Assembly (NCBI GenBank): GCA_964626635.1
Contig: CAZVFY010000001.1
Location: 112,498-176,497, forward strand
Length of the DNA stretch: 64,000 bases
Direction of reading: 5' to 3'
Origin: an uncultured Candidatus Saccharibacteria bacterium
Lineage (GTDB): Bacteria > Patescibacteriota > Minisyncoccia > Phycocordibacterales > UBA918
Positions 26,726 through 40,327 of this stretch are shown in pieces. Within the stretch, counting starts at the first letter, position 1. The number at the start of each line of letters is the position of its first letter. A program made the translations under genes and the position numbers. The notes under the pieces were generated by a model, which was not told the DNA's origin, did no database searches, and saw only the letters and a list, made by a program, of their open reading frames with translations.

Positions 26726-28258
26726 TTACTTTAGTATTGCCTTCACATCAGTAATCTCTTTTTCAATCAGTGTTTCAGATACTTCAAGTGCCTGAGTCAA
26801 ACCTTCTACAGCTTCTTTCTCGTTCTGTGATAATCGCTTGCGTTTAGTAATGTGGTTGATCTGATCATAAATTTCGTCGCGCAGCGCTGAGAATATTTTT
26901 TCCATCTGATCCTGTATCTCGCGTGTTTCGCGGCGCAGCTTGTCCTCTTTAATTTTAAGCGTTTTCTTCTCGTACCAGACATAGACACTCATAAGTCCTA
27001 GTGCAACAATAAGGAAGCAGATCAATAAATTTACAAATGTGAGATAGTCCAGCAAACTTCGTGACTCTTCGGCCTCGAATGGCTTGACCCAGCCAGCAGT
27101 AACCAAGGCAGCGGATGCAGCCTCGCGAGTGTTGCCAGCGAGATCGTGGGCTACTACGGTGACTGAATATGTTCCATCTTCAAGGTCACGTAGTAAATAG
27201 CCTAACTGAGCCTGCTCCGGAGTGATGGTCTCAGGTTCGTTCGTGCCAACGGTAACATCGTAGCGATCAATACCCGAAGTAGTATCTTCGGCCGAAAACA
27301 GTAGCGTTGGGAACGCGCTGCGGTCATTACCTGGCCTTACCTCAATTGAAAATGGTTCGGGTGGAGTAGTATCAATTCTAAGTAAACGATTAGTAACAGC
27401 TCCCCATCCAACTTGATTTTGGAAGCTGATACTGACGTACTGCTCACCCTCTAATGCATTATCTGCATTAACAGTAAAATCTTCGATGGGTGGGTCGATG
27501 ATCGCACCTTCGTTCTCATGAGGCACGTTGTTAGGATCATCGCTGATCTCTACCGCAATCGCAGTCACATCAAATGGTAATGACCAGCGAAACTGTCCTA
27601 CTACACTGCTGTACCACTCTGCAGCCTCAAGAAAGACCGGTGAACCAATTTCTGGCGCCCTGGGTGGATCACCAAAAATAATTGCGTCTCCGCTCGTCGG
27701 GTCACTTGTTTCAGTTGGGGCTGATTCTTCATTTAGCGCGCTCGGTGTCGGGGCCGTAGCCTGAGCGAGGGTGTACTGACCACCGCTGCCTCCAGCGTAT
27801 ACATCCGTCCCTAGCCCATCAGCAGCTAAGACAGAAGCTTCAGCAAACGACACCCCGGCATCGCCCTCTCCAATCACTCGAAAAGTTACATTGACTACCG
27901 TAGAGCTAGTCGTGAACGGTTGTGGGCTACCACCGCCAAAGGTGATAGTCCCAGCGGTATTAGAAAATGTCGGCTCAGTCGTCCACAGTGAAAATACCGA
28001 ACCATTTTTATCTACGCTTACCACCGATAACTGGGACGGATCGAACCCTAACGTTGCTTCAACTGCGTTCACACTGTCGCCACCAGGTACTGCTCGCACG
28101 GTGGTGGTGAAAGTTTGGCCACTATTATAAGTACCGGTACTGGGCGAAAGATTGAGGGTAGCTGCACTCGCAGACCACCCAAGACCCAGCAGTACTATAA
28201 TAAATACAAACCTGCTCACTATCCGTAAAATATCATTTTGTAAAATTAGCTTATGCAT
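26726..28258 (-). CDS. membrane-anchored surface protein with N-terminal cohesin-like domain, FN3-like region, one TM helix and cytoplasmic coiled-coil tail
   Basis: Signal peptide, then ATLNLSPSTG...VNAVEATLGFDPSQLSVVSVD...GTITFGGG...VVNVTFRV, which matches the cohesin beta-sandwich pattern. TM LICFLIVALGLMSVYVWY precedes a K/E-rich helical C-terminus. Confidence 0.55.
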   Translation of the reverse strand: MHKLILQNDILRIVSRFVFIIVLLGLGWSASAATLNLSPSTGTYNSGQTFTTTVRAVPGGDSVNAVEATLGFDPSQLSVVSVDKNGSVFSLWTTEPTFSNTAGTITFGGGSPQPFTTSSTVVNVTFRVIGEGDAGVSFAEASVLAADGLGTDVYAGGSGGQYTLAQATAPTPSALNEESAPTETSDPTSGDAIIFGDPPRAPEIGSPVFLEAAEWYSSVVGQFRWSLPFDVTAIAVEISDDPNNVPHENEGAIIDPPIEDFTVNADNALEGEQYVSISFQNQVGWGAVTNRLLRIDTTPPEPFSIEVRPGNDRSAFPTLLFSAEDTTSGIDRYDVTVGTNEPETITPEQAQLGYLLRDLEDGTYSVTVVAHDLAGNTREAASAALVTAGWVKPFEAEESRSLLDYLTFVNLLICFLIVALGLMSVYVWYEKKTLKIKEDKLRRETREIQDQMEKIFSALRDEIYDQINHITKRKRLSQNEKEAVEGLTQALEVSETLIEKEITDVKAILK

Positions 28259-28812: not shown

Positions 28813-30681
28813 CTAGCCCGTCCAATTAAACAACAAGATCGAGAAGTCAGTCAGGCTCACATTCCCGTCGCCGTTTATATCAGCCGGTGGGTCAGACGCG
28901 CCACCGTCAGTCTGCCACCAAAACAACAAGATCGAGAAGTCAGTCAGATTAACTGACCCATCTCGATTGAGGTCAGCGGCCATACCGGCAGCTAAGGCTT
29001 GACCAACACCGAAAAACTCGTGCTGAGACCAATTCGTATTAGCGCCGCCGACTTGCTCGGCTTTGGCTCGTACCTGGTACGTATCTCGCGCGTAGGTGCT
29101 TGTATCGAGCGTGATGCGATAGGCACCAGTTTGGTCAGTCAGGGCGGTCGAGGTCTTTTGTACCCCACTCCCGCGCCGACCTGACTCAATGGTGACGGTG
29201 GCGTTTGGTAACCCATAACCACTTACAATAAGGGTCTCACCTGGCTCGACTGGATCAGGTGTGATGGTTATTGTGGGTGTGATATTAATATTTGATAATT
29301 CTGAAGCGCGGGCGCCACTAACTGTAAAGGTGGTGCTAAATACCCCAGATTGCTCGTCATTTTCATCGGTGGCGAACACCGCAAAGGTGTACGCACCCCG
29401 AGCAATATCATCCACCGTTACTTCATATGAGCCATCTGCGTCGGCGCGGACTCGGTCTGACTGAAACCCATCTACCAGCACCGATACCTCTGACCGCGGC
29501 GGTGCAAAGCCGCTGATGATCACTCGACCTTCACCTGACTCGTACGGTCCGTCATTTTCAAATCCGCCACCTGTACCATCACCATCGCGGCGTCCACCAC
29601 CACCGCCGCCGCCCGAGCCGCCCGAGCCGCCCGCACCTGATGTTTGTCCCTCGGTATTTGCACCTCCATCTGATGAGCCACTAGTACCACCACCTCCATC
29701 ACCAGACCCGGTACCATCATTGCCAGAGCCAGTACCATCACCACTCGTACTACCAGTGGTGTTAGATTGACCCGTCGGTTGCGCCAAGACAGTAAAGGAA
29801 ATTAAATAATCGTCAATATTTTCGTTAGTCTCATCGTCAACGCACCGAACATAAAATTCTTGCACTGAGTTTGGTGTGACGGTCACGACCGAAGTGTGTA
29901 CCACTAATCCAGTGTTATCAAACGTAAAAGGCTGTAAGGCAAACGCGATATCTGGCGTCCGGGCATACTTACAAACTGCAAACTCGTTCGTTTCAACGGA
30001 AATTTCTACACTCAGGTTTGTTCCCGCAATCGTACTAGTCGGTGAACCACCGAATCGCTCGGGCGGAATTTCTTCGGTCGTGTCACCGGTGACCGTGACT
30101 TTTTCATTTAGAAATACGGTGAAATCCGCTCCAGCAATTTTCCCGCCGTTTTGCACCGAAAACGGAATGCGATGCAATCCTAGATCCGTGCTATTGCGAA
30201 TCGGTTCAATATCAGCCGGGATAGTAGTCGTGCCCGTGGTCGTGCTAAAGACGTCACGCACGCCGAGGGCACCCAATGTCTGGTTACCAATATATAGCTC
30301 GAGCTCAGCACCAGATGGAATGGACAGGTCAGATCCCAGAGTATATGTAATTAACCCACCCGAGCCACCGGCGATACTGACCCCGTCGACACCAACTCCA
30401 GCGCTCGACGCCGTGTCACGCGCAATCCCATCAACGTGCAGCTGGACGTTACGCACTCCAAAGGTGGTGGTGGCTGGCGTCAGGTAAAAGTCACCAGGTA
30501 ATTGATACGTGAACACTGAACCAGGACCAAATGGTACCAAGGTGGTAAAAGAAAGCGTGTGATTTGAAAATTCCGCCGGCCCAGAATCCGACACCGTGTT
30601 CTTGAAATTTGAAATATTTGTTGCGTCAGTACTACTTGGCCACAGCCCAATCAACACAAACAGAAAGAGTACTCGCCACAT
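28813..30681 (-). CDS. secreted protein with Gly/Ser-rich linker, two Ig-like/carboxypeptidase-regulatory-like domains and a C-terminal dockerin (two Ca-binding repeats)
   Basis: Signal peptide MWRVLFLFVLIGLWPSSTDA. The C-terminus DLNRDGSVNLTDFSILLFWW...DINGDGNVSLTDFSILLFNW is a type-I dockerin duplicated segment (DxNxDGxVNxxD). Confidence 0.7.
   Translation of the reverse strand: MWRVLFLFVLIGLWPSSTDATNISNFKNTVSDSGPAEFSNHTLSFTTLVPFGPGSVFTYQLPGDFYLTPATTTFGVRNVQLHVDGIARDTASSAGVGVDGVSIAGGSGGLITYTLGSDLSIPSGAELELYIGNQTLGALGVRDVFSTTTGTTTIPADIEPIRNSTDLGLHRIPFSVQNGGKIAGADFTVFLNEKVTVTGDTTEEIPPERFGGSPTSTIAGTNLSVEISVETNEFAVCKYARTPDIAFALQPFTFDNTGLVVHTSVVTVTPNSVQEFYVRCVDDETNENIDDYLISFTVLAQPTGQSNTTGSTSGDGTGSGNDGTGSGDGGGGTSGSSDGGANTEGQTSGAGGSGGSGGGGGGGRRDGDGTGGGFENDGPYESGEGRVIISGFAPPRSEVSVLVDGFQSDRVRADADGSYEVTVDDIARGAYTFAVFATDENDEQSGVFSTTFTVSGARASELSNINITPTITITPDPVEPGETLIVSGYGLPNATVTIESGRRGSGVQKTSTALTDQTGAYRITLDTSTYARDTYQVRAKAEQVGGANTNWSQHEFFGVGQALAAGMAADLNRDGSVNLTDFSILLFWWQTDGGASDPPADINGDGNVSLTDFSILLFNWTG
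28828..28947. repeat. perfect 27-bp direct repeat (AAACAACAAGATCGAGAAGTCAGTCAG) 93 nt apart, encoding the two dockerin segments
   Basis: Copies at 28828-28854 and 28921-28947. The reverse complement encodes LTDFSILLF in both dockerin repeats. Confidence 0.9.
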
Positions 30682-30695
30682 ATGTACACCTTACC

Positions 30696-31124
30696 TTACA
30701 TCACCGGGCGCATTGAAGGCTTTTCCCTAACCGCTGGTCGCTGGCGCACAAAATCCAGCACATAATTGAGTACAATCAGCACCAACATGATAAATAATAT
30801 TGAGGCGAGAACGTACGTAGAACGATCCATTGGTTCGCCAGACTCGCGGAGCGAGACTGCTATTTCCCGCTCTTCTAACATCGCTTCACGCGTCGCGAGC
30901 GCCGTCCGCTGTGCGGTCAGCTCAGCAGTGATGCTGTTGAACTCGTTTGGGGCGACAGAGGCCGACATACCGACACTAGCGCCGAGATACTCGATCGCGC
31001 CATCAAACATATCTGCAGTACTGGGGTGGAGCAAGCCAGTGGCATACACCAACGTGATCGCTGTCACCAGGGATCCGATTCGCAGTAGTTTGTGGTACAG
31101 CGTATCACGCATACTGTTAGGCAA
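30696..31124 (-). CDS. small bitopic/double-TM membrane protein with central coiled coil (hypothetical)
   Basis: 142-aa ORF with hydrophobic segments IGSLVTAITLVYATGLL and YVLASILFIMLVLIVLNYVL and a helical A/E/R-rich middle. An 8-nt overlap with the upstream gene and a 14-nt gap before the dockerin gene suggest co-transcription. Confidence 0.4.
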   Translation of the reverse strand: MPNSMRDTLYHKLLRIGSLVTAITLVYATGLLHPSTADMFDGAIEYLGASVGMSASVAPNEFNSITAELTAQRTALATREAMLEEREIAVSLRESGEPMDRSTYVLASILFIMLVLIVLNYVLDFVRQRPAVREKPSMRPVM

Positions 31125-32196
31125 ATAATAGCAACATTACGAGTAAGAATATCGCCAGCACCACCAGCACCGCCAGCAGCGTCACTAGCAACAGTGACTG
31201 GCCGCCCGCTTGCTTGCGGCGGACCACGCGCCGTCCGACGCTGAGCTGCGCCACTTTACGTTTGATGTAGATACGCACCCCGATGACAGTGACTAGCAGT
31301 ACCACCGCTAGCACGCCCAGCACTGGGCCGATAATACTGAACGGCAAAATCCAGAATGTCACCGTGCTACTCATGGTCTTTCGTGCACCATCGAGTCCAT
31401 ACACTGGACTGAGGATCGCTTCGTACCGCCCAAAGCCAATCTCGTCTCCTTCCCATGTCAGTGCAAATTCTCGAGTGTCATTGGGGAAGACACCGGCTTG
31501 CGTGTCATTAAACGCCACCTCTCCTACCCTCGCTCCGAGTGCATTGTAAATCTCCAACGGTCCAGTCGGGCGGACTAGTACATTTCCCTGATTTTCAATC
31601 CGGACTTGGAAATCGACATTTTGTGATCCATACAAGAATTTACCTGTCGAGAACTGTCGGATATTCGCGGTCTCTACTGCGTCACCGCTGACCCTGATAC
31701 TGACGATGTTGGCTACCTGGTAGCCTACCGCTGCGCCACTTTGGCTGATGTCCGGGGCCTCGACCGACACAAAAATCCCCCCAAAATTACTACCTGGCGG
31801 CGCGTCCTCAGGCACATCCATCTGGAACGTAAACGCTCGAGTTGTCCCGGCTGGTACCGTGATCGTGGTGGTCGATAGCGTGATCCAGTCGACCAATTCA
31901 AAGCCGGTTGCATCCAAGTTCGAATTAGCAAACACCGGCACTCCACCATCGTCTACTGATTCAATGTTGCGTGTAAACAAAAAATACGTCTGCTCTTCAT
32001 CGGTTAGGTTACCGACCTCGACAGTACGGTTGACGGTGATTCCGGGATCGAGCGTTTCCTCGATTACTGCCGGCGAGATACTGACGCCGGCACCTGACTG
32101 TGCGTGCAATGCCTGTGTTCCGAAAAGCCACACTGAAACAGCGAGTGTCAGCAGCGTGATGATTCGTAATATCAGTGGGTGAGATAAGGCTTGCAT
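31117..32196 (-). CDS. cell-surface protein resembling the DUF916 (CscA-like) family with C-terminal double TM anchor (DUF3324-like)
   Basis: Signal peptide, then VSISPAVIEETLDPGITVNRTVEVGNLTDEEQTYFLF...VPEDAPPGSNFGGIFV, as in DUF916. The C-terminus has two hydrophobic helices separated by basic residues. Confidence 0.45.
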   Translation of the reverse strand: MQALSHPLILRIITLLTLAVSVWLFGTQALHAQSGAGVSISPAVIEETLDPGITVNRTVEVGNLTDEEQTYFLFTRNIESVDDGGVPVFANSNLDATGFELVDWITLSTTTITVPAGTTRAFTFQMDVPEDAPPGSNFGGIFVSVEAPDISQSGAAVGYQVANIVSIRVSGDAVETANIRQFSTGKFLYGSQNVDFQVRIENQGNVLVRPTGPLEIYNALGARVGEVAFNDTQAGVFPNDTREFALTWEGDEIGFGRYEAILSPVYGLDGARKTMSSTVTFWILPFSIIGPVLGVLAVVLLVTVIGVRIYIKRKVAQLSVGRRVVRRKQAGGQSLLLVTLLAVLVVLAIFLLVMLLLFA

Positions 32197-32244
32197 ATTG
32201 CACTAGTGTAGCAGCCGCAGAGGATTAAATATTTCTGTATACAC

Positions 32245-32278
32245 AAAACCACCCAGGCCGGATGGTCTGGGTGGTTTT
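32245..32278 (-). terminator. bidirectional Rho-independent terminator after the WxL-like gene
   Basis: AAAA CCACCCAG gccggatggt CTGGGTGG TTTT: perfect 8-bp GC-rich stem with a 10-nt loop, flanked by an A-tract and a T-tract, immediately 3' of the minus-strand CDS ending at 32328. Confidence 0.75.
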
Positions 32279-32327
32279 GATGCTCTCAGTGACTAATAGA
32301 TTCAGCCAGTGTAGCGGGTGCGAGCAA

Positions 32328-33461
32328 CTAGAAGGTTGGTGTCGCGATGTAGGTCAGAGTTGTGTTGTAGTCGTCACCAGCTTCCTGGAGTGGAGTGATT
32401 TCGAGCTTGTACGCAACTTGTGTTACACCTTCGTTGGCAACTGTACCGTTGGTTACTCCGTCGTGTGAGAAGATTTCTCGTGGCGTAGTACTCGCTGATA
32501 CGAATAATGATGTACCAAATTCATCAGTGTTCAGGTCATCTTCTGAAGTCAGACCCCAGTGACCGTAGGTGTTTTCACTATTGACTGTGTTAGTCGGTGA
32601 AGCCCAAACCGTTGGTGTATCGGTGTAAGTACCGTCAACGAATCCGTCGATGTCAGCTCCGGTTGATGAGATCAGATTAGAGTCCTGCTCGACTGTCACC
32701 ACAAAACCATTGATGGCGTTAGTAGTAACATTGAGCTGCTGTCCAATGATCTTGGCGTTAGCAGATCCTGGTGCTACTTCACCAAATGGGATGGTAGTAG
32801 TTGAACTGTCATCAGTGGTAGTCTCGCCATTGACGTCAGTACCAGCTGCTAATGGGCTAATTACAAAGTCAAAGATAGATGCCACTTCGGCAGTGACTTC
32901 AACTGTGTCGATGATAGCTACTCGAGTACGACCACTGTCCGGTGTACCGTTGGTTGCATCCGCAACTTCGACGAGAACCTCGTACGAGTCGCCGATGCCG
33001 GCCGCTGCTACTTTAGCTGGATTGACGATTTTACCGTCTGCGACCACGACTTGAATAGTATCTCCCGCGCCGGCAGCCAGACCGTCAAAGGTAATGCTGT
33101 CAGCTGTTGCTGTAAATGTACCTAGCGTGAATGCCCCATCGCCAGTTACCGTGAGGTCAGCTCCGACAACTGTTTCGATGTCGTCAAACGGTTCTGAGAC
33201 TGCACCCTGATCACGAGCATCCCAAGTGATGGTGATGTCGTCAGCCGTGGTTATAGTCGAACCGGTTGGTACGGTGAACTCAATGGTGTGAGAAGACGTC
33301 ACGCTCGGATTTGAACTCGAGAGTGTGTTACTCACGCTAGTAAGGTTAGCTGCTTGTGCAGAATGGAAATACCCTGCTGAGGCAAATACCACTGCACCAG
33401 CAACAAGTGTCGCGACCACTCGTTGCGAAATGCCAACTGAATTGGTTGGAATTACGAACAT
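32328..33461 (-). CDS. secreted surface protein, candidate WxL-domain (CscB/CscC-like) protein
   Basis: Signal peptide (AGAVVFASAGYFHSAQA), a T/S/D-rich beta-rich body, and a C-terminal region with YGHWGLTSED (W-x-L) that ends ...TLTYIATPTF. Sits next to the DUF916-like gene. The second WxL motif is degenerate, so the call is tentative. Confidence 0.4.
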   Translation of the reverse strand: MFVIPTNSVGISQRVVATLVAGAVVFASAGYFHSAQAANLTSVSNTLSSSNPSVTSSHTIEFTVPTGSTITTADDITITWDARDQGAVSEPFDDIETVVGADLTVTGDGAFTLGTFTATADSITFDGLAAGAGDTIQVVVADGKIVNPAKVAAAGIGDSYEVLVEVADATNGTPDSGRTRVAIIDTVEVTAEVASIFDFVISPLAAGTDVNGETTTDDSSTTTIPFGEVAPGSANAKIIGQQLNVTTNAINGFVVTVEQDSNLISSTGADIDGFVDGTYTDTPTVWASPTNTVNSENTYGHWGLTSEDDLNTDEFGTSLFVSASTTPREIFSHDGVTNGTVANEGVTQVAYKLEITPLQEAGDDYNTTLTYIATPTF

Positions 33462-35515: not shown

Positions 35516-35541
35516 CTAGCACGTCCCCTACTTTGTGCTAG
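35516..35541. promoter_or_regulatory. inverted repeat CTAGCAC-N12-GTGCTAG 10 nt upstream of the umuD start; candidate SOS-type operator or weak terminator of the upstream gene
   Basis: 7-bp perfect arms at 35516-22 and 35535-41. The right arm overlaps the stop codon of the CAP gene. On the minus strand it is followed by TATTTTGCT and then the ATG. Confidence 0.3.
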
Positions 35542-36695
35542 GCAATCGTAACGGTGCCGACGAGCGCGAACTGCACCCACCATAAACCTCCGACCAGCAG
35601 CAATAGTGCGACAGCATAAGACACTTGTCTAAAATGTAATCGCCTCGTCTCACCTAGTAGCGCAATGATGCTACAAATGATTGCCACCCCAACGAGCAAT
35701 GAATACACCGTGTCGAGGATCAGTTGCGGTCTGGTCAGCAGGCCGCTGAGGCCAGTATGCCCGCTATGCACACCATTTGACACTACTACTGGCGGTAAGC
35801 TGGCCACTGGCTCGGCGTCGACCTCGGGCACAAAGTCTGACGCAACCACGCGGTCAGATGGCACCAGAGGCGGTGCGAGAGTAGGTAGGCCCACCGGAAT
35901 GGGCGGCATAGTTGGACTGGTTTGGCCACGTGGCGAACTTTCATTTACTGGTGCAGGTGCGGAGTCTGATACCGGTGCCGGAGTCGCGAGTCCAGCTATT
36001 GCAGCGTCTTCGGTGGCGGCCGCAAGTAATTCGACTGGCTCTGGTGTCGCCGGCGTTGGTTCTGACACTGACAATGGCTCACTGAGGGTGGTTGGCGCAC
36101 TAACAGTGTCGGGTGCGGCACGCGTGGCCAAGGCCGGCGCTATCGGCGTGTCAGTTGGTGTGCCGAATAATTGCACTACGAAGATAGTTTCGTACCCTTC
36201 GTATTGACCACGAGCTGTCCCGACGCCAATCTCGGTGAATTTGCTGTCGACGATGTTTTCTTTATGGGTTGGTGAATTCATCCAGGCGCGCACTACGGCG
36301 TCCGCATCATTAAAATGTACGGCGAGATTCTCGCCCGCGTGTACATAGTCATAATTGACGTCAGCAAAAAACTCCCAGGGTGTCGTACCGTCTGGTGCAA
36401 AGTGTGCAAAATAGCCGTTTGCAGCCATGTGTTCGGCTTTGGCGGTCGCCGCTGCATCCAGCAGCGGCGACCGAGCGAGCGATGTAGCTGCGTACCCGGC
36501 TCGCTCGACGTTTGTTTCTTCGACCACCACCGCCGGCAACACCGCGCCGACTAGCCAATCTGACGATCGCCACAATAGCGCTTGGGCACTGGTACCGACG
36601 AACGTCAGTACGATCAGCCCGCCAACACACGCGAGCGCTACTTTCTCAAATTTATTGGGGGCGTACGTATCGTCTGGCGCAAACCACTGTCTCAT
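35538..36695 (-). CDS. CAP/SCP/PR-1-like (YkwD-type) extracellular domain protein with N-terminal signal anchor, Pro/Thr-rich linker and C-terminal TM segments
   Basis: CAP motifs GYFAHFAPDG...HAGENLA...AWMNSPTHKENIVDSKFTEIGVG. The start is placed at the internal ATG 36693-95 (MRQWF), 40 nt after the sortase stop. The six-frame ORF extends to 36770. Confidence 0.7.
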   Translation of the reverse strand: MRQWFAPDDTYAPNKFEKVALACVGGLIVLTFVGTSAQALLWRSSDWLVGAVLPAVVVEETNVERAGYAATSLARSPLLDAAATAKAEHMAANGYFAHFAPDGTTPWEFFADVNYDYVHAGENLAVHFNDADAVVRAWMNSPTHKENIVDSKFTEIGVGTARGQYEGYETIFVVQLFGTPTDTPIAPALATRAAPDTVSAPTTLSEPLSVSEPTPATPEPVELLAAATEDAAIAGLATPAPVSDSAPAPVNESSPRGQTSPTMPPIPVGLPTLAPPLVPSDRVVASDFVPEVDAEPVASLPPVVVSNGVHSGHTGLSGLLTRPQLILDTVYSLLVGVAIICSIIALLGETRRLHFRQVSYAVALLLLVGGLWWVQFALVGTVTIA

Positions 36696-36735
36696 ACATT
36701 GTATCGTACCATTTTCGAAGTACGTGCCGGTGCCA

Positions 36736-37419
36736 CTATGTAGATTCGCGAGTACCAACGAGCTCGGCAAATACTACGCGGTTATGCGAGTACCGCTGTG
36801 TCCCCTGGTCAAATATTCCGGAACAAGTAATTAGTCGTAACCCAGCGTGGTCGATGTCTTGGTATACCAAGTCAGTCGGGAAATCGTTCTGATCGTAGCG
36901 CTCGTTACGCGTGACCGCATATACGAGTGACACCCCATCATCGCGTTCAACAATCACTTCGTCGCCGGTTTGCAGTTGTCCGAGCGAGAAAAACACCGCC
37001 GGACCACCCACCGAGTCAACGTGCCCGAGGATCACCGAGGGCCCTAGATTGCCCGGCACTGGACTGTAGCGATACCACCCGACCTGATCGTACGTGGCTG
37101 GCACAGCCACTTCTCCAGAATCGAGCAAGCCGAGCGGATCCACAAACGTACTGTCTACTTGCGCGCGAGGGACAATCAGACGAGTCGGCCTCGTATCACT
37201 GGTGGCAGATACAACGAGAGTATCGGTTGCAACTGTAGATGTAACTGGCTCAGTCACTGCGGGCTGTACGCTCCTCGGACCTGTCACCGGATCGCCGCCT
37301 GTTTGCTGGCCGAGCACCACCAATATAACTAGCGCACACAAAAGTACGCCGACAGGCGAACCTGCGGCGTACTGCATGTGGTTTTTTAGTTGTGAGAGGA
37401 TTTCTCTAGCCTTGTCCAT
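36736..37419 (-). CDS. sortase family transpeptidase (class E/F-like)
   Basis: Signal anchor, catalytic His in ILGHVDS, Cys in the LRLITCSG (TLxTC) motif, and a downstream Arg (YSHNRVVFAEL). The start is placed at ATG 37417-19 (MDKARE), 13 nt after the upstream stop. Confidence 0.7.
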   Translation of the reverse strand: MDKAREILSQLKNHMQYAAGSPVGVLLCALVILVVLGQQTGGDPVTGPRSVQPAVTEPVTSTVATDTLVVSATSDTRPTRLIVPRAQVDSTFVDPLGLLDSGEVAVPATYDQVGWYRYSPVPGNLGPSVILGHVDSVGGPAVFFSLGQLQTGDEVIVERDDGVSLVYAVTRNERYDQNDFPTDLVYQDIDHAGLRLITCSGIFDQGTQRYSHNRVVFAELVGTREST

Positions 37420-40327
37420 GTGACTGCATTCGAACAAATCGAAGTGCAAATGTCAAGAGAGCAAGGATGGCAAGAGCTCCGGCCGCGTTCGTGCCAGTGG
37501 CTGTTCCACCGGCTCCGGTATTAGCACCACCGCTTGGTACTACGGTGACCTGCTCGCCTGCAACTAGTGGAGTTGGTGCGGCGGTTGTGCTGATACCAGC
37601 CACAGTGCCGGCCACCTCGTCACCAGACTCGATGTCAGCGACCACTAGAGCGCCGCCAGCTCCACCGTTGTTGCTTCGATTAACGCGCGTTGCTAACGGA
37701 TTTGACGAGTCGTTTTCATCTGGATTCAAGCTTCCTTGATTACCGGTCGCTCCGCCGCCAGTACCACCGGTACTGCCACCGTTACCTGATCCTGTAGCAA
37801 CGTACGGAGTACAACTACTGTCCAAGATTACAATCGCGTCGACATCATACCCATCACCGCCCACGGTTGTTTGGTCAACTAATCGGACGTGGGTGACCTC
37901 CGTCAAACCGGCTACAGCGATGTCAACACTGCCGTCGCCAGTGATTGTACCAGCTGAAGCAAAGTTAACTCCGTCATCCGATAGTAAGACTTCTACAGCC
38001 TCTTTCGTGTCGCGGTTGCTACCGGTCACTTCGTAGATTGCAATATCGTCGCCAGCTGTATCAACTGCTTTTTGACCAGTAAATTCATAGTCTAGTTCAC
38101 CGTTGATACCGAGTGAGAAGAAATCACTTGGGTTAAACGTTGCTTCGCCGCCGGTAACGTTTTGGTAGCTAGCGATTGTATCAAGCGCCGTGAGAGTTCG
38201 TCGCTCAGTCGCTACTGGATTGCCGTCACTATCTACTGCATTGTCAGTCGATCGAACGATCGCGCCCTCAAGCGAACAAACGTTTGGTGTCGTGTCTGGA
38301 GCTACACACCCTGCAACGGTGACCGTAAGCGTTCCGCGATTATCTCTGTACCACTTATTTTTCTCTTCAAAAATGGCAAAGTTCATCGGGCTGTCTGTTC
38401 CGCTTACCAATGTTTGGTACGTATGAGCTGCGTTGTACGCACCCCACTCAACGTCTACCCCATCAATATAGAGATCGTGGGTTTCTTTCCCGGCTGCTTT
38501 CTTTGTCTGACCAGTTGGATCCCAGAACGCTGGTGATGATGGCTGGCTAGATCCAAATCCATTAAATGAGCTATATTCTGCATCTGATACATTGTCTTTT
38601 GATGTGCTGTTGCCGCCTAATCGATCAGACTCTTTACCGGTCCCGGGACCCCACGTAAAGGTACCGGATACAGTAATCAAGTAGTCTTCAGTGCTGAGCA
38701 AGTCAATGTCAGTCGTGGCTCCGGCTGGATTACGCGAATCAACGCTGAGGGTGGCAATTGTCTCGACTGTATGATCGGCTGGGCACTGGAGGACTGGGGT
38801 CGGTTCTGATGCTGGACACAAAGTAAACGTGTACGTAGCATTGTTTCCATCCACGTCATAGACAACCATGGTGTTTTGACCCGCAACCGCACCAAACACA
38901 CCGGGCTTAATAAAGTTCACATCACTCCATTCATTGTCTGACAAATCTTTCACAACGCCGTTGATTTCGACCCGATCAATCTCGCCGCCCTTATCGCGTA
39001 ACTTGTAGCTAATCATCGAATAGCCAAGTTCACAGGTAGTGGTGAATTTTTCTTCTGGTTTGATAGTCGCGGTTGGTGCGCTCGACTCTTTGTCTCGACC
39101 GGCACACAGCGTCACTATAATTTCTGTCATGTTGCCAGCAGTATCAAACAACTGAATTGTGTTCATGCCTTCAACCGCACCGTCACGTCCGGCCCGCACG
39201 CCATTAAGATCACTGAATTTGTCATCCTTCAAGTCTTTCTTTTCGCCGTTGATAAGTACGTAGTCAATTGCAACATTGTCTTTCAATTTGTAACTGACAT
39301 TTGAGAATCCTTGACCTGATTCGCACCGGTTAGCGCCATCTTTTTGGTCAATTTGTGGTTTTTTAGTGTCAATAGGAGTTGGTTCAGGACATACTGCGCC
39401 AAGACTTCCAGCCGTGGCAGTACGACTCTTGCCTTCAGCTGGGTTACCAAGTGTCCATTCAATTGCTTCAGTCGCTAGGTCAAATTCAACCGAAAACGCT
39501 GCATTTTCTGGCCGAAAGACTCCAGTATCATTAACAAATGGTGTGCGGCCAGGTAGAAATTCTGTTGGCTGTCCACGGTCTGGTCCATCCTGTACCTTGT
39601 TAAAGTCACCAAAATCAATGGTTACTGTTTCGGTGTTGCTATTTGTGTATCCAAAGTAGCCGGTCGCAGTCACACCGTCTTCATTTGGCAGGTAACACTC
39701 AAAGATTGGCTTAATTTCCCATGTTGGGTTGGTGTCAGGCTGATTTGTGTCTTCTGACTCATTTTCACCTCCCTGGTCATCTTCACCCATAGAAACAACG
39801 GCTTTAACTGTTGCAGTTTGAGCAATTAGAATAGTATTGTCACCAGTCGTTACTTCGGTGAAAATATCATACTCACCTTCGGCATCATTTTGATAGCAAA
39901 CACTCTTGCTTTGTGAATTTGTTCTAATAGTCACTTGCGTAATTGGTCCATTGTCGACATTACACACACCCTCATGAGTTCCGCCAAAGAATGTACCTCC
40001 AGCACCGCCGTCAGACAATTTCACAGTAGTTGTCTCAGTAGCCTTTTGATCAAGACTTAACTTGAAATTAATTGGCTGTCCAACCACGCCCGCAATGTTT
40101 CCCAGCTCTTCAATTTTAGTTGGTGGTGTTGGTGTATCTGGCGTGTCTAAGGCCTGAACGTCAGACAAGTCCTCTAATGTCAGATCTTCGCCTGTCTCGG
40201 TTTCAATCTCCGCATTTAATTCAGCATCCTCTTGCGCTGTCGCCACCGGCACGCTACCGATTGCAATTGCCACCAGCGCGAACGCAGTGAAGCACTTTGT
40301 AATAAAACTTTCTTGCATACGTATCAA
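37406..40327 (-). CDS. large secreted surface protein (973 aa) with tandem ~85-aa repeats and C-terminal hydrophobic anchor plus basic tail; putative sortase substrate
   Basis: Signal peptide MIRMQESFITKCFTAFALVAIAIGSVPVATAQ. Repeated ...C..G...SYKL(K/R)D...ID.V.ING..KDL...LC modules. The C-terminus is ...AGALAILALLTFALRFVRMQSHGQG, a sorting-signal-like topology but without a canonical LPXTG. Confidence 0.55.
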   Translation of the reverse strand: MIRMQESFITKCFTAFALVAIAIGSVPVATAQEDAELNAEIETETGEDLTLEDLSDVQALDTPDTPTPPTKIEELGNIAGVVGQPINFKLSLDQKATETTTVKLSDGGAGGTFFGGTHEGVCNVDNGPITQVTIRTNSQSKSVCYQNDAEGEYDIFTEVTTGDNTILIAQTATVKAVVSMGEDDQGGENESEDTNQPDTNPTWEIKPIFECYLPNEDGVTATGYFGYTNSNTETVTIDFGDFNKVQDGPDRGQPTEFLPGRTPFVNDTGVFRPENAAFSVEFDLATEAIEWTLGNPAEGKSRTATAGSLGAVCPEPTPIDTKKPQIDQKDGANRCESGQGFSNVSYKLKDNVAIDYVLINGEKKDLKDDKFSDLNGVRAGRDGAVEGMNTIQLFDTAGNMTEIIVTLCAGRDKESSAPTATIKPEEKFTTTCELGYSMISYKLRDKGGEIDRVEINGVVKDLSDNEWSDVNFIKPGVFGAVAGQNTMVVYDVDGNNATYTFTLCPASEPTPVLQCPADHTVETIATLSVDSRNPAGATTDIDLLSTEDYLITVSGTFTWGPGTGKESDRLGGNSTSKDNVSDAEYSSFNGFGSSQPSSPAFWDPTGQTKKAAGKETHDLYIDGVDVEWGAYNAAHTYQTLVSGTDSPMNFAIFEEKNKWYRDNRGTLTVTVAGCVAPDTTPNVCSLEGAIVRSTDNAVDSDGNPVATERRTLTALDTIASYQNVTGGEATFNPSDFFSLGINGELDYEFTGQKAVDTAGDDIAIYEVTGSNRDTKEAVEVLLSDDGVNFASAGTITGDGSVDIAVAGLTEVTHVRLVDQTTVGGDGYDVDAIVILDSSCTPYVATGSGNGGSTGGTGGGATGNQGSLNPDENDSSNPLATRVNRSNNGGAGGALVVADIESGDEVAGTVAGISTTAAPTPLVAGEQVTVVPSGGANTGAGGTATGTNAAGALAILALLTFALRFVRMQSHGQG

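Follow-up and report, generated by a model that had tools for sequence, protein, structure and literature searches.

Do three adjacent genes of an uncultured bacterium that is not a Firmicute encode a surface-anchoring system of the WxL/WxLIP (Csc) type? Clusters of this type have been described so far almost only in Firmicutes, to which 91% of WxL sequences belong (PMC9772566). Their discussion treats them as modules of adhesion and virulence in gut commensals. We addressed this question in a window of 64,000 nucleotides (the whole stretch of DNA analysed here, from contig CAZVFY010000001.1), for which an earlier note had proposed, from the sequence alone, a csc/WxL-like trio of co-oriented genes, possibly outside Firmicutes and next to a cohesin-dockerin pair. 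Three co-oriented ORFs on the minus strand do adjoin genes with cohesin and dockerin domains, and the host belongs to the Parcubacteria/Paceibacteria group of the Patescibacteria (CPR); a Firmicute is excluded. The features relevant here are as follows.

32328-33461, minus strand: gene 1, an ORF encoding a secreted, acidic protein of 377 aa
32907-33350, minus strand: N-terminal beta-sandwich domain of gene 1 (residues about 38-185, from AF2 secondary structure)
32331-32900, minus strand: C-terminal domain of gene 1, probably WxL-like but Trp-less (residues 188-377)
32245-32278, minus strand: bidirectional intrinsic terminator (A-run, GC stem, T-run)
31117-32196, minus strand: gene 2, encoding a WxLIP (CscA-type) homologue of 359 aa, from the ORF and profiles
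30696-31124, minus strand: gene 3, an ORF encoding a small conserved membrane protein of 142 aa from a TTG start
28813-30681, minus strand: secreted dockerin protein of 622 aa (PF17936, 5.1e-9; PF00404, 2.8e-7)
26726-28258, minus strand: cohesin-domain protein of 510 aa (PF00963, 2.9e-7)
36736-37449: sortase gene

In 59 of 71 related loci, which come from different CPR species, gene 1 is followed by gene 2 and then by gene 3, and the synteny also takes in the genes for the cohesin, dockerin, Hsp20 and 7440-aa proteins. Dozens of related species share this arrangement and the terminator, so the features of the trio are not due to chance. The clusters of two relatives (L080 and L087) each contain one large protein with the gene 1 C-terminal domain, two gene 1 copies and three gene 2-like genes. 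A giant LamG-rich protein is encoded downstream. Rfam yielded no RNA families between positions 26000 and 38000.

On the evidence of its sequence, gene 2 is a real homologue of the WxL-interacting protein WxLIP (DUF916 + DUF3324). It matches PF06030 (DUF916/PGBD) with an E-value of 9.5e-6 and 26.1 bits (cutoff 27.3), and 55 of 60 members of its family match this model at E<=0.01, the best at 3.2e-9. The family profile matches the solved EfmWxLIP1 (9i25_C and 9i1y_A) at E 1e-4, and hhalign aligned gene 2 with five genuine WxLIPs at a probability of 96% (E 2.8e-9, 232 columns). This alignment spans both ectodomains (gene 2 residues 21-263 against WxLIP residues 18-273) and continues through gene 2 residues 160-263, which correspond to WxLIP residues 170-273 inside the HBD. 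PF11797 (DUF3324/HBD) matched none of 60 gene 2 relatives. Thus, of the two domain profiles that had been suggested as a check on gene 2, DUF916 was recovered just under its cutoff and DUF3324 was detected by profile-profile alignment only, not by Pfam. The overall layout also agrees with the CscA-like protein with a double C-terminal membrane anchor that had been described: gene 2 begins with a signal-like hydrophobic segment, ends with two hydrophobic segments (about 277-313 and 329-359) that have a basic loop between them and, at 359 aa, has the length of genuine WxLIPs (346-360 aa). The N-terminal strand NQIDKxxxYFDLK, conserved in WxLIPs, is absent from gene 2, in which the aligned region reads ISPAxIEETLDPG with a deletion.

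Some gene 2 relatives carry the NCBI name 'DUF916 domain-containing protein'. We also considered as gene 2 homologues the 'peptidoglycan-binding domain' proteins reported to be highly expressed in cultured Paceibacteria (PMC10936435), and rejected them because their domain is of the 1lbu / PG_binding_1 type and the supplements of that paper contain no WxL or DUF916 term.

Gene 1 encodes a protein with a signal peptide (predicted cleavage after AQA36) and a mature form of about 35 kDa that has a pI of 4.05 and lacks Cys. It has no match in Pfam or NCBIfam. Homologues number more than 1500 (the best 120 listed are 51-65% identical), and all 80 genome loci, like the named sources, belong to CPR. 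The peptides YGHWGLTSED (residues 299-308) and TLTYIATPTF (the C-terminal end), which the earlier note had read as signs of a WxL protein, are both present. As a candidate for WxL motif 1, H301-W302-G-L304 was rejected, hhalign consistently placing motif 1 on NGFVVTV instead. The WxL model PF13731, for which a lack of matches had been named as refuting the proposal, matched neither gene 1 nor any of 60 relatives at E<=1, and genuine small WxL proteins in the same library matched it at 1e-38 to 1e-72. This model also misses large proteins with C-terminal WxL-type motifs in those same Firmicutes clusters, and it is therefore insensitive to large proteins of this kind.

Genuine WxL domains share two conserved blocks, D-x-R-G..G-W-x-L-x-V and Y-x-x-x-L-T-W-x-L-x-x-x-P. 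Using a WxL alignment built from plasmid records, we found by profile-profile comparison that the C-terminal domain of gene 1 is co-linear with these domains at FG, at NGFVVTVEQ (against xxWxLxVxQ) and at YxTTLTYIATP (against YxxxLTWxLxxxP). The equivalent of motif 1 is N251-G-F253-V-V255-T-V257-E-Q and that of motif 2 is Y365-N-T-T-L369-T-Y371-I-A373-T-P375, so that both tryptophans are replaced at the aligned positions (G-F253-V-V and T-Y371-I-A), where Asp W1-8 and Arg W1-6 are absent as well. Against 15 genuine WxL domains the score was 29.2 (P 1.1e-3); leaving the C-terminal motif out of both profiles gave 27.9 (P 5.6e-4), and the C-terminal 32 aa alone scored 16.8 (P 4.2e-3). Column shuffles gave 10.2+/-1.9, 9.4+/-1.9 and 7.9+/-1.4, respectively, and none of 50-60 shuffles matched the observed scores. 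Reversed profiles reached 10.6-11.4, and six control families from the same loci 11-17, as against 28-29 for gene 1 and WxL. The signal rose when the WxL profile was enlarged from 6 to 15 sequences; against small WxL proteins alone, only the last strand of the domain aligns. Unannotated proteins inside Firmicutes WxL clusters show the same replacements of W by F and of W by Y (NGFTI, NYQL/SYQL), and we take these proteins to be WxL-like themselves.

The hhalign probability of the gene 1/WxL alignment is only 20-30%, below conventional significance for homology. This would suit a different explanation, namely that gene 1 forms an abundant protein of the surface or S-layer type without any binding to gene 2, that the genes are neighbors only because envelope genes lie together in such small genomes, and that the likeness to WxL is convergent, reflecting Thr-rich beta-strand patterns. 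Such independence would also be in keeping with the terminator, which separates gene 1 transcriptionally from genes 2 and 3, and with a second, paralogous locus type in which gene 1 paralogues adjoin dockerin/cohesin genes and only a weak gene 2-like gene lies nearby. Against it, the trio keeps its order even though gene 1 is only 44-62% identical among the loci and insertions occur elsewhere in the cluster, two non-overlapping segments of gene 1 are co-linear with WxL and each scores far above shuffles and controls, and the partner of gene 1 is homologous specifically to the WxL-interacting protein. We consider this explanation quite improbable. Weak profile homology and gene context together indicate that the C-terminal domain of gene 1 is probably a very divergent WxL-type domain in which the tryptophans have given way to Phe and Tyr. 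What stands of the original assignment of gene 1 to the WxL proteins is thus the co-linear alignment of this domain, and not the Pfam match or the HWGL motif.

The AF2 model of gene 1 has a pLDDT of 83. Foldseek with the whole two-domain model was uninformative because its matches were all generic ones (Ig-like, integrin and adhesin; TM-scores of 0.2), and the family profile matched no PDB chain at E<=10. When re-modelled alone, the C-terminal domain is predicted to adopt a pilin/TasA-like sandwich of the donor-strand-complemented class. Such a fold fits the AlphaFold2 prediction that a strand of WxLIP fills a gap in the WxL sandwich (PMC10599100); a solved complex of WxLIP with a long WxL protein exists in the PDB (9i25).

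The incomplete Ig fold of pilin type in this model could also mean that gene 1 is a donor-strand-exchange subunit that polymerizes head to tail into a fibre or pilus, as in TasA, archaeal bundling pili or TLP-1 pond fibrils, with gene 2 as a membrane-bound anchor, initiator or chaperone in a TapA-like role and with larger proteins that end in the same module as tip subunits. However, the N-terminal strand of gene 1 lies within the folded N-terminal domain in the AF2 model, and the corresponding strand is internal in larger fusion proteins. Homology to TasA/camelysin or to chaperone-usher pilins was likewise not detected, gene 1 matching no Peptidase_M73 or fimbrial Pfam model. We consider a fibre of this kind unlikely.

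The C-terminal domain of gene 1 defines a large family without a Pfam model, matching 995 clusters at 50% identity. In the library of representatives searched with its profile, the family itself fills the best 150 matches, all at E<1e-43, leaving no room for distant relatives from outside CPR. In nearly all of these 150 the domain extends to the last residue, and some of the proteins that it terminates are 457-1022 aa long; larger proteins with LamG, LVIVD or Listeria-Bacteroides repeats also end in it. Representatives of 219-250 aa are no evidence of 'small' forms and were rejected as such, because they look like gene fragments without signal peptides. The family HMM identified no second domain of this type in any ORF of the window; we dismissed as noise the weak matches of the C-terminal-domain HMM to gene 2, Big_6 regions and even GroEL (E 1e-5 to 7e-3).

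The N-terminal domain of gene 1 has a relative within the cluster: a profile match indicates that it is homologous to the N-terminus of the neighboring dockerin protein, residues 10-99 of which match the gene 1 family HMM at E 4.2e-6, with the common block A-x-N-[LI]-[TS]..NT[LV]SDSxP...SxHT[IL]xFT. This gene 1-like domain is followed in the dockerin protein by a Gly-rich linker, Big_6 domains and a C-terminal dockerin, and most related loci retain its gene downstream of gene 3. The cohesin protein, whose synteny is conserved as well, has a C-terminal TM segment (400-430) and is presumed to be the membrane anchor for the dockerin protein, a pairing suggested by the Pfam matches of the two.

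Gene 3 indeed encodes a small membrane protein, as had been stated, with hydrophobic segments at 13-32 and 99-128; metagenome gene callers place it at 30696-31112 (138 aa). It consists of an N-terminal TM segment, heptad-like charged repeats and a C-terminal TM segment with a conserved LNYxLDY, and its orthologues (59 aligned) always directly follow gene 2. We found neither a significant Pfam match nor an LPXTG motif in gene 3, which is without a csc counterpart; identity with a CscD-type LPXTG protein is excluded.

The strong bidirectional terminator attributed to gene 1 is borne out. The hairpin at 32245-32278 (AAAACCACCCAG...CTGGGTGGTTTT), 50 nt past the gene 1 stop codon, folds with -29.1 kcal/mol (z = -5.9), and no shuffled sequence folds equally well; a simple terminator scan, restricted to loops of at most 8 nt, overlooked it for that reason alone. 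Of 79 related loci, 69 have an equivalent hairpin and T-run no more than 120 nt past gene 1, whereas such a structure follows gene 2 in 4 of 66, gene 3 in 7 of 57 and the upstream IMS gene in 4 of 64. Promoter-like sites in a sigma-70 scan did not exceed the number expected by chance, and the interval from gene 1 to gene 2 had none.

Taken as a whole, we judge with a probability of roughly 0.55 that the trio is a Trp-less variant of the WxL/WxLIP (Csc) surface-anchoring system, conserved in CPR bacteria of the Parcubacteria group. Under this reading gene 2, as its homology shows, is a WxLIP-type protein that is exported and held by its C-terminal helices in the cytoplasmic membrane, with two Ig-like ectodomains, and gene 1 would be a secreted acidic protein of high abundance. 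If the two interact as WxL and WxLIP do in the Enterococcus complex, the incomplete beta-sandwich of the gene 1 C-terminal domain may be completed by a strand or hairpin from the DUF916 domain of gene 2; gene 1 would thereby be attached non-covalently at the cell surface, and larger proteins ending in the same module could be tethered likewise. The N-terminal domain of gene 1 might, more speculatively, point outward and connect the anchor with both the cohesin-dockerin pair and the giant LamG-rich protein. The conserved terminator may ensure that gene 1, as the structural subunit, is made in excess over gene 2 and gene 3.

A bolder view is that WxL domains and donor-strand-exchange subunits form one structural continuum and that, in CPR bacteria of the Parcubacteria group, gene 1 is the subunit of an unrecognised surface fibre or lattice, nucleated and anchored by a WxLIP-type protein through strand complementation and serving as a platform that displays the cohesin-dockerin and giant LamG-rich proteins for attachment to hosts or particles. 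We hold this to be improbable; if true, some of the appendages or surface layers that still lack an explanation in ultra-small groundwater bacteria could be of this nature.

If the trio is instead the anchoring system that we favor, many CPR species of the Parcubacteria group have a syntenic module made up of a WxLIP homologue and its Trp-less WxL-like partner, flanked by a cohesin-dockerin pair and a surface protein of 7440 aa. This would offer a concrete, testable surface-anchoring mechanism for uncultured ultra-small bacteria, whose surface proteins are mostly 'hypothetical', and a likely role for the large uncharacterised family of the gene 1 C-terminal domain. It would also imply that the domain can do without the Trp-x-Leu signature, which helps to explain the unannotated proteins of Firmicutes WxL clusters. 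Our literature search found no paper linking DUF916 or WxL to CPR; DUF916 in CPR had already been labelled by NCBI, and what is new here is the gene 1 partner, the conserved cluster architecture and its distribution.

Compared with known systems, gene 1 differs from TasA, archaeal bundling pili, TLP-1 fibrils and chaperone-usher pilins in lacking sequence similarity to them and in having an extra N-terminal domain. Unlike donor-strand-exchange pilins, it shows no evidence of a free donor strand, and its neighbor is a WxLIP homologue, with no cognate signal peptidase, usher or chaperone seen. Cohesin-dockerin scaffolds, whether cellulosome-type or non-cellulosomal, differ in that no glycoside hydrolases are attached here and in that the dockerin protein has an N-terminal domain of the gene 1 type, but the adjacency of a membrane-anchored cohesin and a secreted dockerin is shared with them and would provide the cluster with a second non-covalent tethering pair.

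Our reference Csc systems were those of Lactobacillales and Listeria, including L. plantarum cscA-D, E. faecium loci A-C and E. faecalis Elr. Unlike the clusters in these hosts, the CPR cluster is syntenic with cohesin, dockerin, Hsp20 and 7440-aa protein genes, has one WxL-like gene in the window rather than the small and large pair that, with at least one WxLIP, defines such clusters, and has the two-TM, coiled gene 3 in place of an LPXTG CscD, a frequent but not obligatory member; the proposed csc likeness holds for the WxLIP homologue and probably for its WxL-like partner, and fails for the WxL pair and the CscD-type protein. Gene 1 has F253 and Y371 for the two tryptophans and escapes PF13731, and gene 2 has two C-terminal TM helices instead of one and lacks NQIDKxxxYFDLK. 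Nevertheless, as in Csc clusters, the WxLIP-type gene 2 is co-oriented with and directly downstream of a secreted acidic protein gene, an order (WxL-like gene, then WxLIP gene) also found in Firmicutes plasmid clusters, and a sortase gene lies nearby. Gene 2 resembles Csc WxLIPs in its signal peptide, DUF916-like and putative DUF3324-like domains, C-terminal membrane anchor and length of about 360 aa, the extreme C-terminal domain of gene 1 aligns with WxL domains block for block, and, like large WxL proteins, larger multi-domain surface proteins end in the gene 1 C-terminal module.

The three genes that the earlier note likened to Firmicutes cell-surface-complex genes are co-oriented minus-strand ORFs, as it had proposed, and the motifs it quoted from gene 1 are present in the translated ORF. 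Gene 2 has the double C-terminal hydrophobic anchor ascribed to it, and gene 3, called a small membrane protein, is conserved in 59 orthologues and has two TM segments flanking a charged, heptad-like middle; neither a Pfam match nor an LPXTG motif was found in it. The reported cohesin-dockerin neighbours were also found, downstream of the trio and on the same strand, as are an Hsp20 gene and a giant ORF. This part of the window, which is identical to part of a 210-kb JGI metagenome contig as is the rest of the window, reads, all on the minus strand:

4288-26610, minus: giant ORF, 7440 aa, rich in LamG, DUF2341 and pentaxin-type domains (Pfam)
26726-28258, minus: cohesin protein, 510 aa, with a C-terminal TM segment
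28246-28755, minus: Hsp20/alpha-crystallin gene (PF00011, E 4.8e-10)
28813-30681, minus: dockerin protein, 622 aa, with Big_6 and dockerin domains
30696-31124, minus: gene 3, ORF of 142 aa from a TTG start (138 aa according to metagenome gene callers)
31117-32196, minus: gene 2, ORF of 359 aa
32328-33461, minus: gene 1, ORF of 377 aa
33789-35506, minus: S24 LexA/UmuD-like peptidase gene overlapping an IMS (DinB/UmuC-type) polymerase gene, upstream of gene 1
35538-40327, minus: CAP-domain protein, sortase (PF04203, E 1.1e-21) and a 973-aa protein, further upstream

The 973-aa protein ends in a hydrophobic segment and a basic tail and is a possible sortase substrate. Hsp20, a cytoplasmic chaperone, is oddly located amid genes for exported proteins, and its position between the dockerin and cohesin genes is kept in many related species. 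The 7440-aa ORF (C-terminus ...EVPFGTASNPHTGVNTFTAVPD) recurs, at 7413 aa, behind the cohesin gene of a 63%-identity relative. A 633-aa protein at a paralogous locus (L078:1682-3583) ends in ...GLNTFTAV, resembling the end of the giant ORF; the gene 1 HMM matched neither protein.

We scanned one genome per GTDB species, obtaining 180 matches, and drew synteny counts from the 80 loci kept, which represent different species. These CPR bacteria keep the three genes together as a unit: genes 1, 2 and 3 are directly consecutive in 59 of the 71 loci that had enough flanking sequence. This adjacency counts against the weaker of two alternatives, namely that the gene 1 and gene 2 proteins do not interact. 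The usual wider order is [sortase]-CAP-S24-IMS-gene 1-gene 2-gene 3-(0-3 kb insert)-dockerin protein-Hsp20-cohesin protein; the umuDC-like S24/IMS pair adjoins gene 1 on its upstream side in almost every related locus, and sortase and CAP genes recur upstream in many. Homologues of gene 1 number over 1500, and the 120 best listed share 51-65% identity. The earlier note had left the phylum uncertain and possibly outside Firmicutes. The MAGs behind the 80 loci carry the labels Paceibacteria/Paceibacterota, Parcubacteria, Kaiserbacteria, Nomurabacteria, Patescibacteria, 'Saccharibacteria' or just 'bacterium', and gene 2 relatives in NCBI are named as proteins of Kaiserbacteria or Nomurabacteria, which NCBI taxonomy places within the Patescibacteria and Parcubacteria groups. 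These labels and placements indicate that the host belongs to the CPR, not Firmicutes.

Gene 2 encodes a membrane-anchored WxLIP homologue, in line with its earlier description as DUF916-like and CscA-like, and the main tests of WxLIP membership came out positive. Its match to PF06030 (WxLIP_PGBD, formerly DUF916; E 9.5e-6, 26.1 bits) falls just below the cutoff of 27.3, and 55 of 60 relatives match the same model (best 3.2e-9). The family profile retrieved the solved E. faecium WxLIP1 (9i25_C, 9i1y_A) at E 1e-4. Aligned by hhalign with five genuine WxLIPs encoded on Enterococcus and Lactococcus plasmids, three of which were scanned and match PF06030 and PF11797 at 1e-23 to 1e-48, the CPR family gave Prob 96% and E 2.8e-9 over 232 columns. 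Gene 2 residues 21-263 correspond to WxLIP 18-273, covering the entire DUF916 and most of DUF3324; Pfam did not detect DUF3324 in the family (60 relatives). Some relatives of gene 2 already carry a DUF916 label from the NCBI pipeline; no publication in the literature searched joins DUF916 or WxL with CPR.

For gene 1 and 60 relatives, PF13731 and NCBIfam gave nothing at E<=1, the outcome that the earlier note had named as counting against its WxL assignment; the same run detected genuine small WxL proteins at 1e-38 to 1e-72. The family profile matched no PDB chain at E<=10. The PF13731 result is not decisive, because this model also misses large surface proteins of Firmicutes WxL clusters that have C-terminal WxL-type motifs. 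Four proteins of genuine Enterococcus/Lactococcus plasmid clusters (L089:5168-5776, L089:2736-4280, L092:6287-6775 and L090:3591-5966) are annotated as 'hypothetical' or by another domain and have putative WxL-type domains at their C-termini, in some of which W has given way to F or Y; since none matched PF13731 where scanned, the Pfam model seems insufficiently sensitive for this branch.

Profile-profile comparison with seven small WxL proteins aligned only the last strand (Prob 1%). With enlarged alignments (150 diverse gene 1 C-domain representatives; 15 C-terminal WxL domains encoded on plasmids of Enterococcus, Lactococcus and Listeria), hhalign aligned the full domain end to end with a score of 29.2 (P 1.1e-3, Prob 20%), which none of 60 column shuffles reached (10.2 +/- 1.9, max 16.8). 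Splitting the alignment into two parts served as a test of independence. Without the last 32 residues of both, the score was 27.9 (Prob 30%, P 5.6e-4), reached by 0/50 shuffles (9.4 +/- 1.9, max 13.5); those residues alone scored 16.8 (P 4.2e-3; shuffles 7.9 +/- 1.4, max 10.9). Reversed WxL profiles scored 10.6-11.4 and six other families from the same loci 11-17. The score increased as the WxL profile grew from 6 to 15 sequences, as expected of true remote homology.

Three blocks are co-linear: TxIPFG of gene 1 with svPxxxdFG of WxL, QQLNVTTNAxNG-F253-V-V255-T-V257-EQ with lxVxDxRGxxxx-W-x-L-x-V-xQ, and Y365-NTT-L-T-Y371-I-A-T-P375 with YxxxLTWxLxxxP. Both WxL tryptophans are thus replaced in gene 1 (F253, Y371). 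In L. garvieae (NGFTI) and E. gilvus (NYQL, SYQL), unannotated proteins encoded beside WxL genes, presumably WxL-like themselves, show these replacements too. The WxL call had rested on overall topology and on a W-x-L motif at the wrong site: H-W302-G-L was rejected as motif 1, which aligns with G-F-V-V. The block E-N-T-[WY]-G-H-W-G-L (gene 1 298-302; window 32556-32570, minus strand) lies outside the WxL-aligned blocks and may be a ligand-binding site; G300, H301 and W302 are invariant in 61 close relatives, and distant ones replace W by Q, I, M or F.

Modelling gave gene 1 two beta domains (pLDDT 83), and the C-domain modelled alone (pLDDT 87, pTM 0.84) is predicted with good support to have a donor-strand-type Ig fold. 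Its top Foldseek match is the TasA fibre (E 5.4e-4). A second list of structural matches has, just below its head, the Pyrobaculum bundling pilin, Csu, CFA/I, CS17, the Sulfolobus thread and TasA. Chain 9i25_A, the solved long WxL, is in neither top list (9i25_C is in one), which argues against close structural similarity. In the main alternative reading, gene 1 would polymerise into a TasA-like fibre, and gene 2 would act as its anchor or chaperone. Counting gene context with the profile signal, we consider the gene 1 C-domain probably homologous to the WxL domain, at about two chances in three.

Gene 1 encodes a secreted, conserved protein and is followed by a terminator of its own; the mature form is acidic (pI 4.05), lacks Cys and is 25% Ser+Thr. 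Its signal peptide (residues 1-37; 33351-33461, minus strand) is unusually conserved between species (M1 F2 T6 V9 R14-V-V-A17 L19-V-A21 ... A-Q-A|A-N-L), which hints that a dedicated step recognises or processes it; the neighbouring genes that were examined showed no SipW-type peptidase. The C-domain matches 995 clusters of the representative library at E<=1e-3. In nearly all of the best 150 this match extends to the final residue, and longer members carry LamG, LVIVD or Listeria-Bacteroides repeats ahead of the entire gene 1 module. The N-terminal domain is homologous to the dockerin protein N-terminus (~100 residues, E 4.2e-6). The two share the block A-x-N-[LI]-[TS]..NT[LV]SDSxP...SxHT[IL]xFT, which in the dockerin protein (minus strand) is followed by a long Gly-rich linker (GSGNDGTGSGDGGGGTSG...).

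Folding bore out the strong bidirectional terminator proposed for gene 1 (32245-32278; -29.1 kcal/mol, z = -5.9). Of 79 loci, 69 have a terminator-like hairpin and T-run no more than 120 nt downstream of gene 1, 60 of these with a 5'-side A-run, and the stem sequences vary from locus to locus; similar structures follow gene 2 in 4/66, gene 3 in 7/57 and the IMS gene in 4/64. Such a terminator would leave the gene 1 subunit in excess over its anchor. Gene 2 may tether gene 1 by strand complementation, and larger proteins with the same C-terminal module would be held likewise; more speculatively, the shared N-domain might couple this anchor with the giant protein and with the cohesin-dockerin pair.

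A second, paralogous locus type (L066, L068, L072, L074, L076, L078, L081, L082, L085), of which no equivalent was found in the window, places a gene 1 paralogue (44-46% identical) between a DUF4215/Big_6/dockerin protein upstream and three cohesin- or dockerin-related proteins downstream. Several of these loci also have a weak gene 2-like SP+TM protein nearby; some genomes carry both types on one contig.

By analogy, the gene 1/gene 2 arrangement would work like the WxL/WxLIP system. Gene 1 lacks the defining Trp-x-Leu and a Pfam match but gives weak, specific signals of homology. Gene 2 lacks the NQIDKxxxYFDLK strand conserved in genuine WxLIPs and has two C-terminal TM helices where they have one. 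The window does not have the two WxL genes that define Firmicutes clusters, but two related CPR loci come near the 'large WxL + small WxL + WxLIP' composition: L080 and L087 encode a large protein with a gene 1-type C-domain at its end (E 1e-21; its length is 984 aa in L080, whereas the locus edge truncates it in L087), followed by two further gene 2-like genes, a pair of gene 1 copies, and gene 2 with gene 3.
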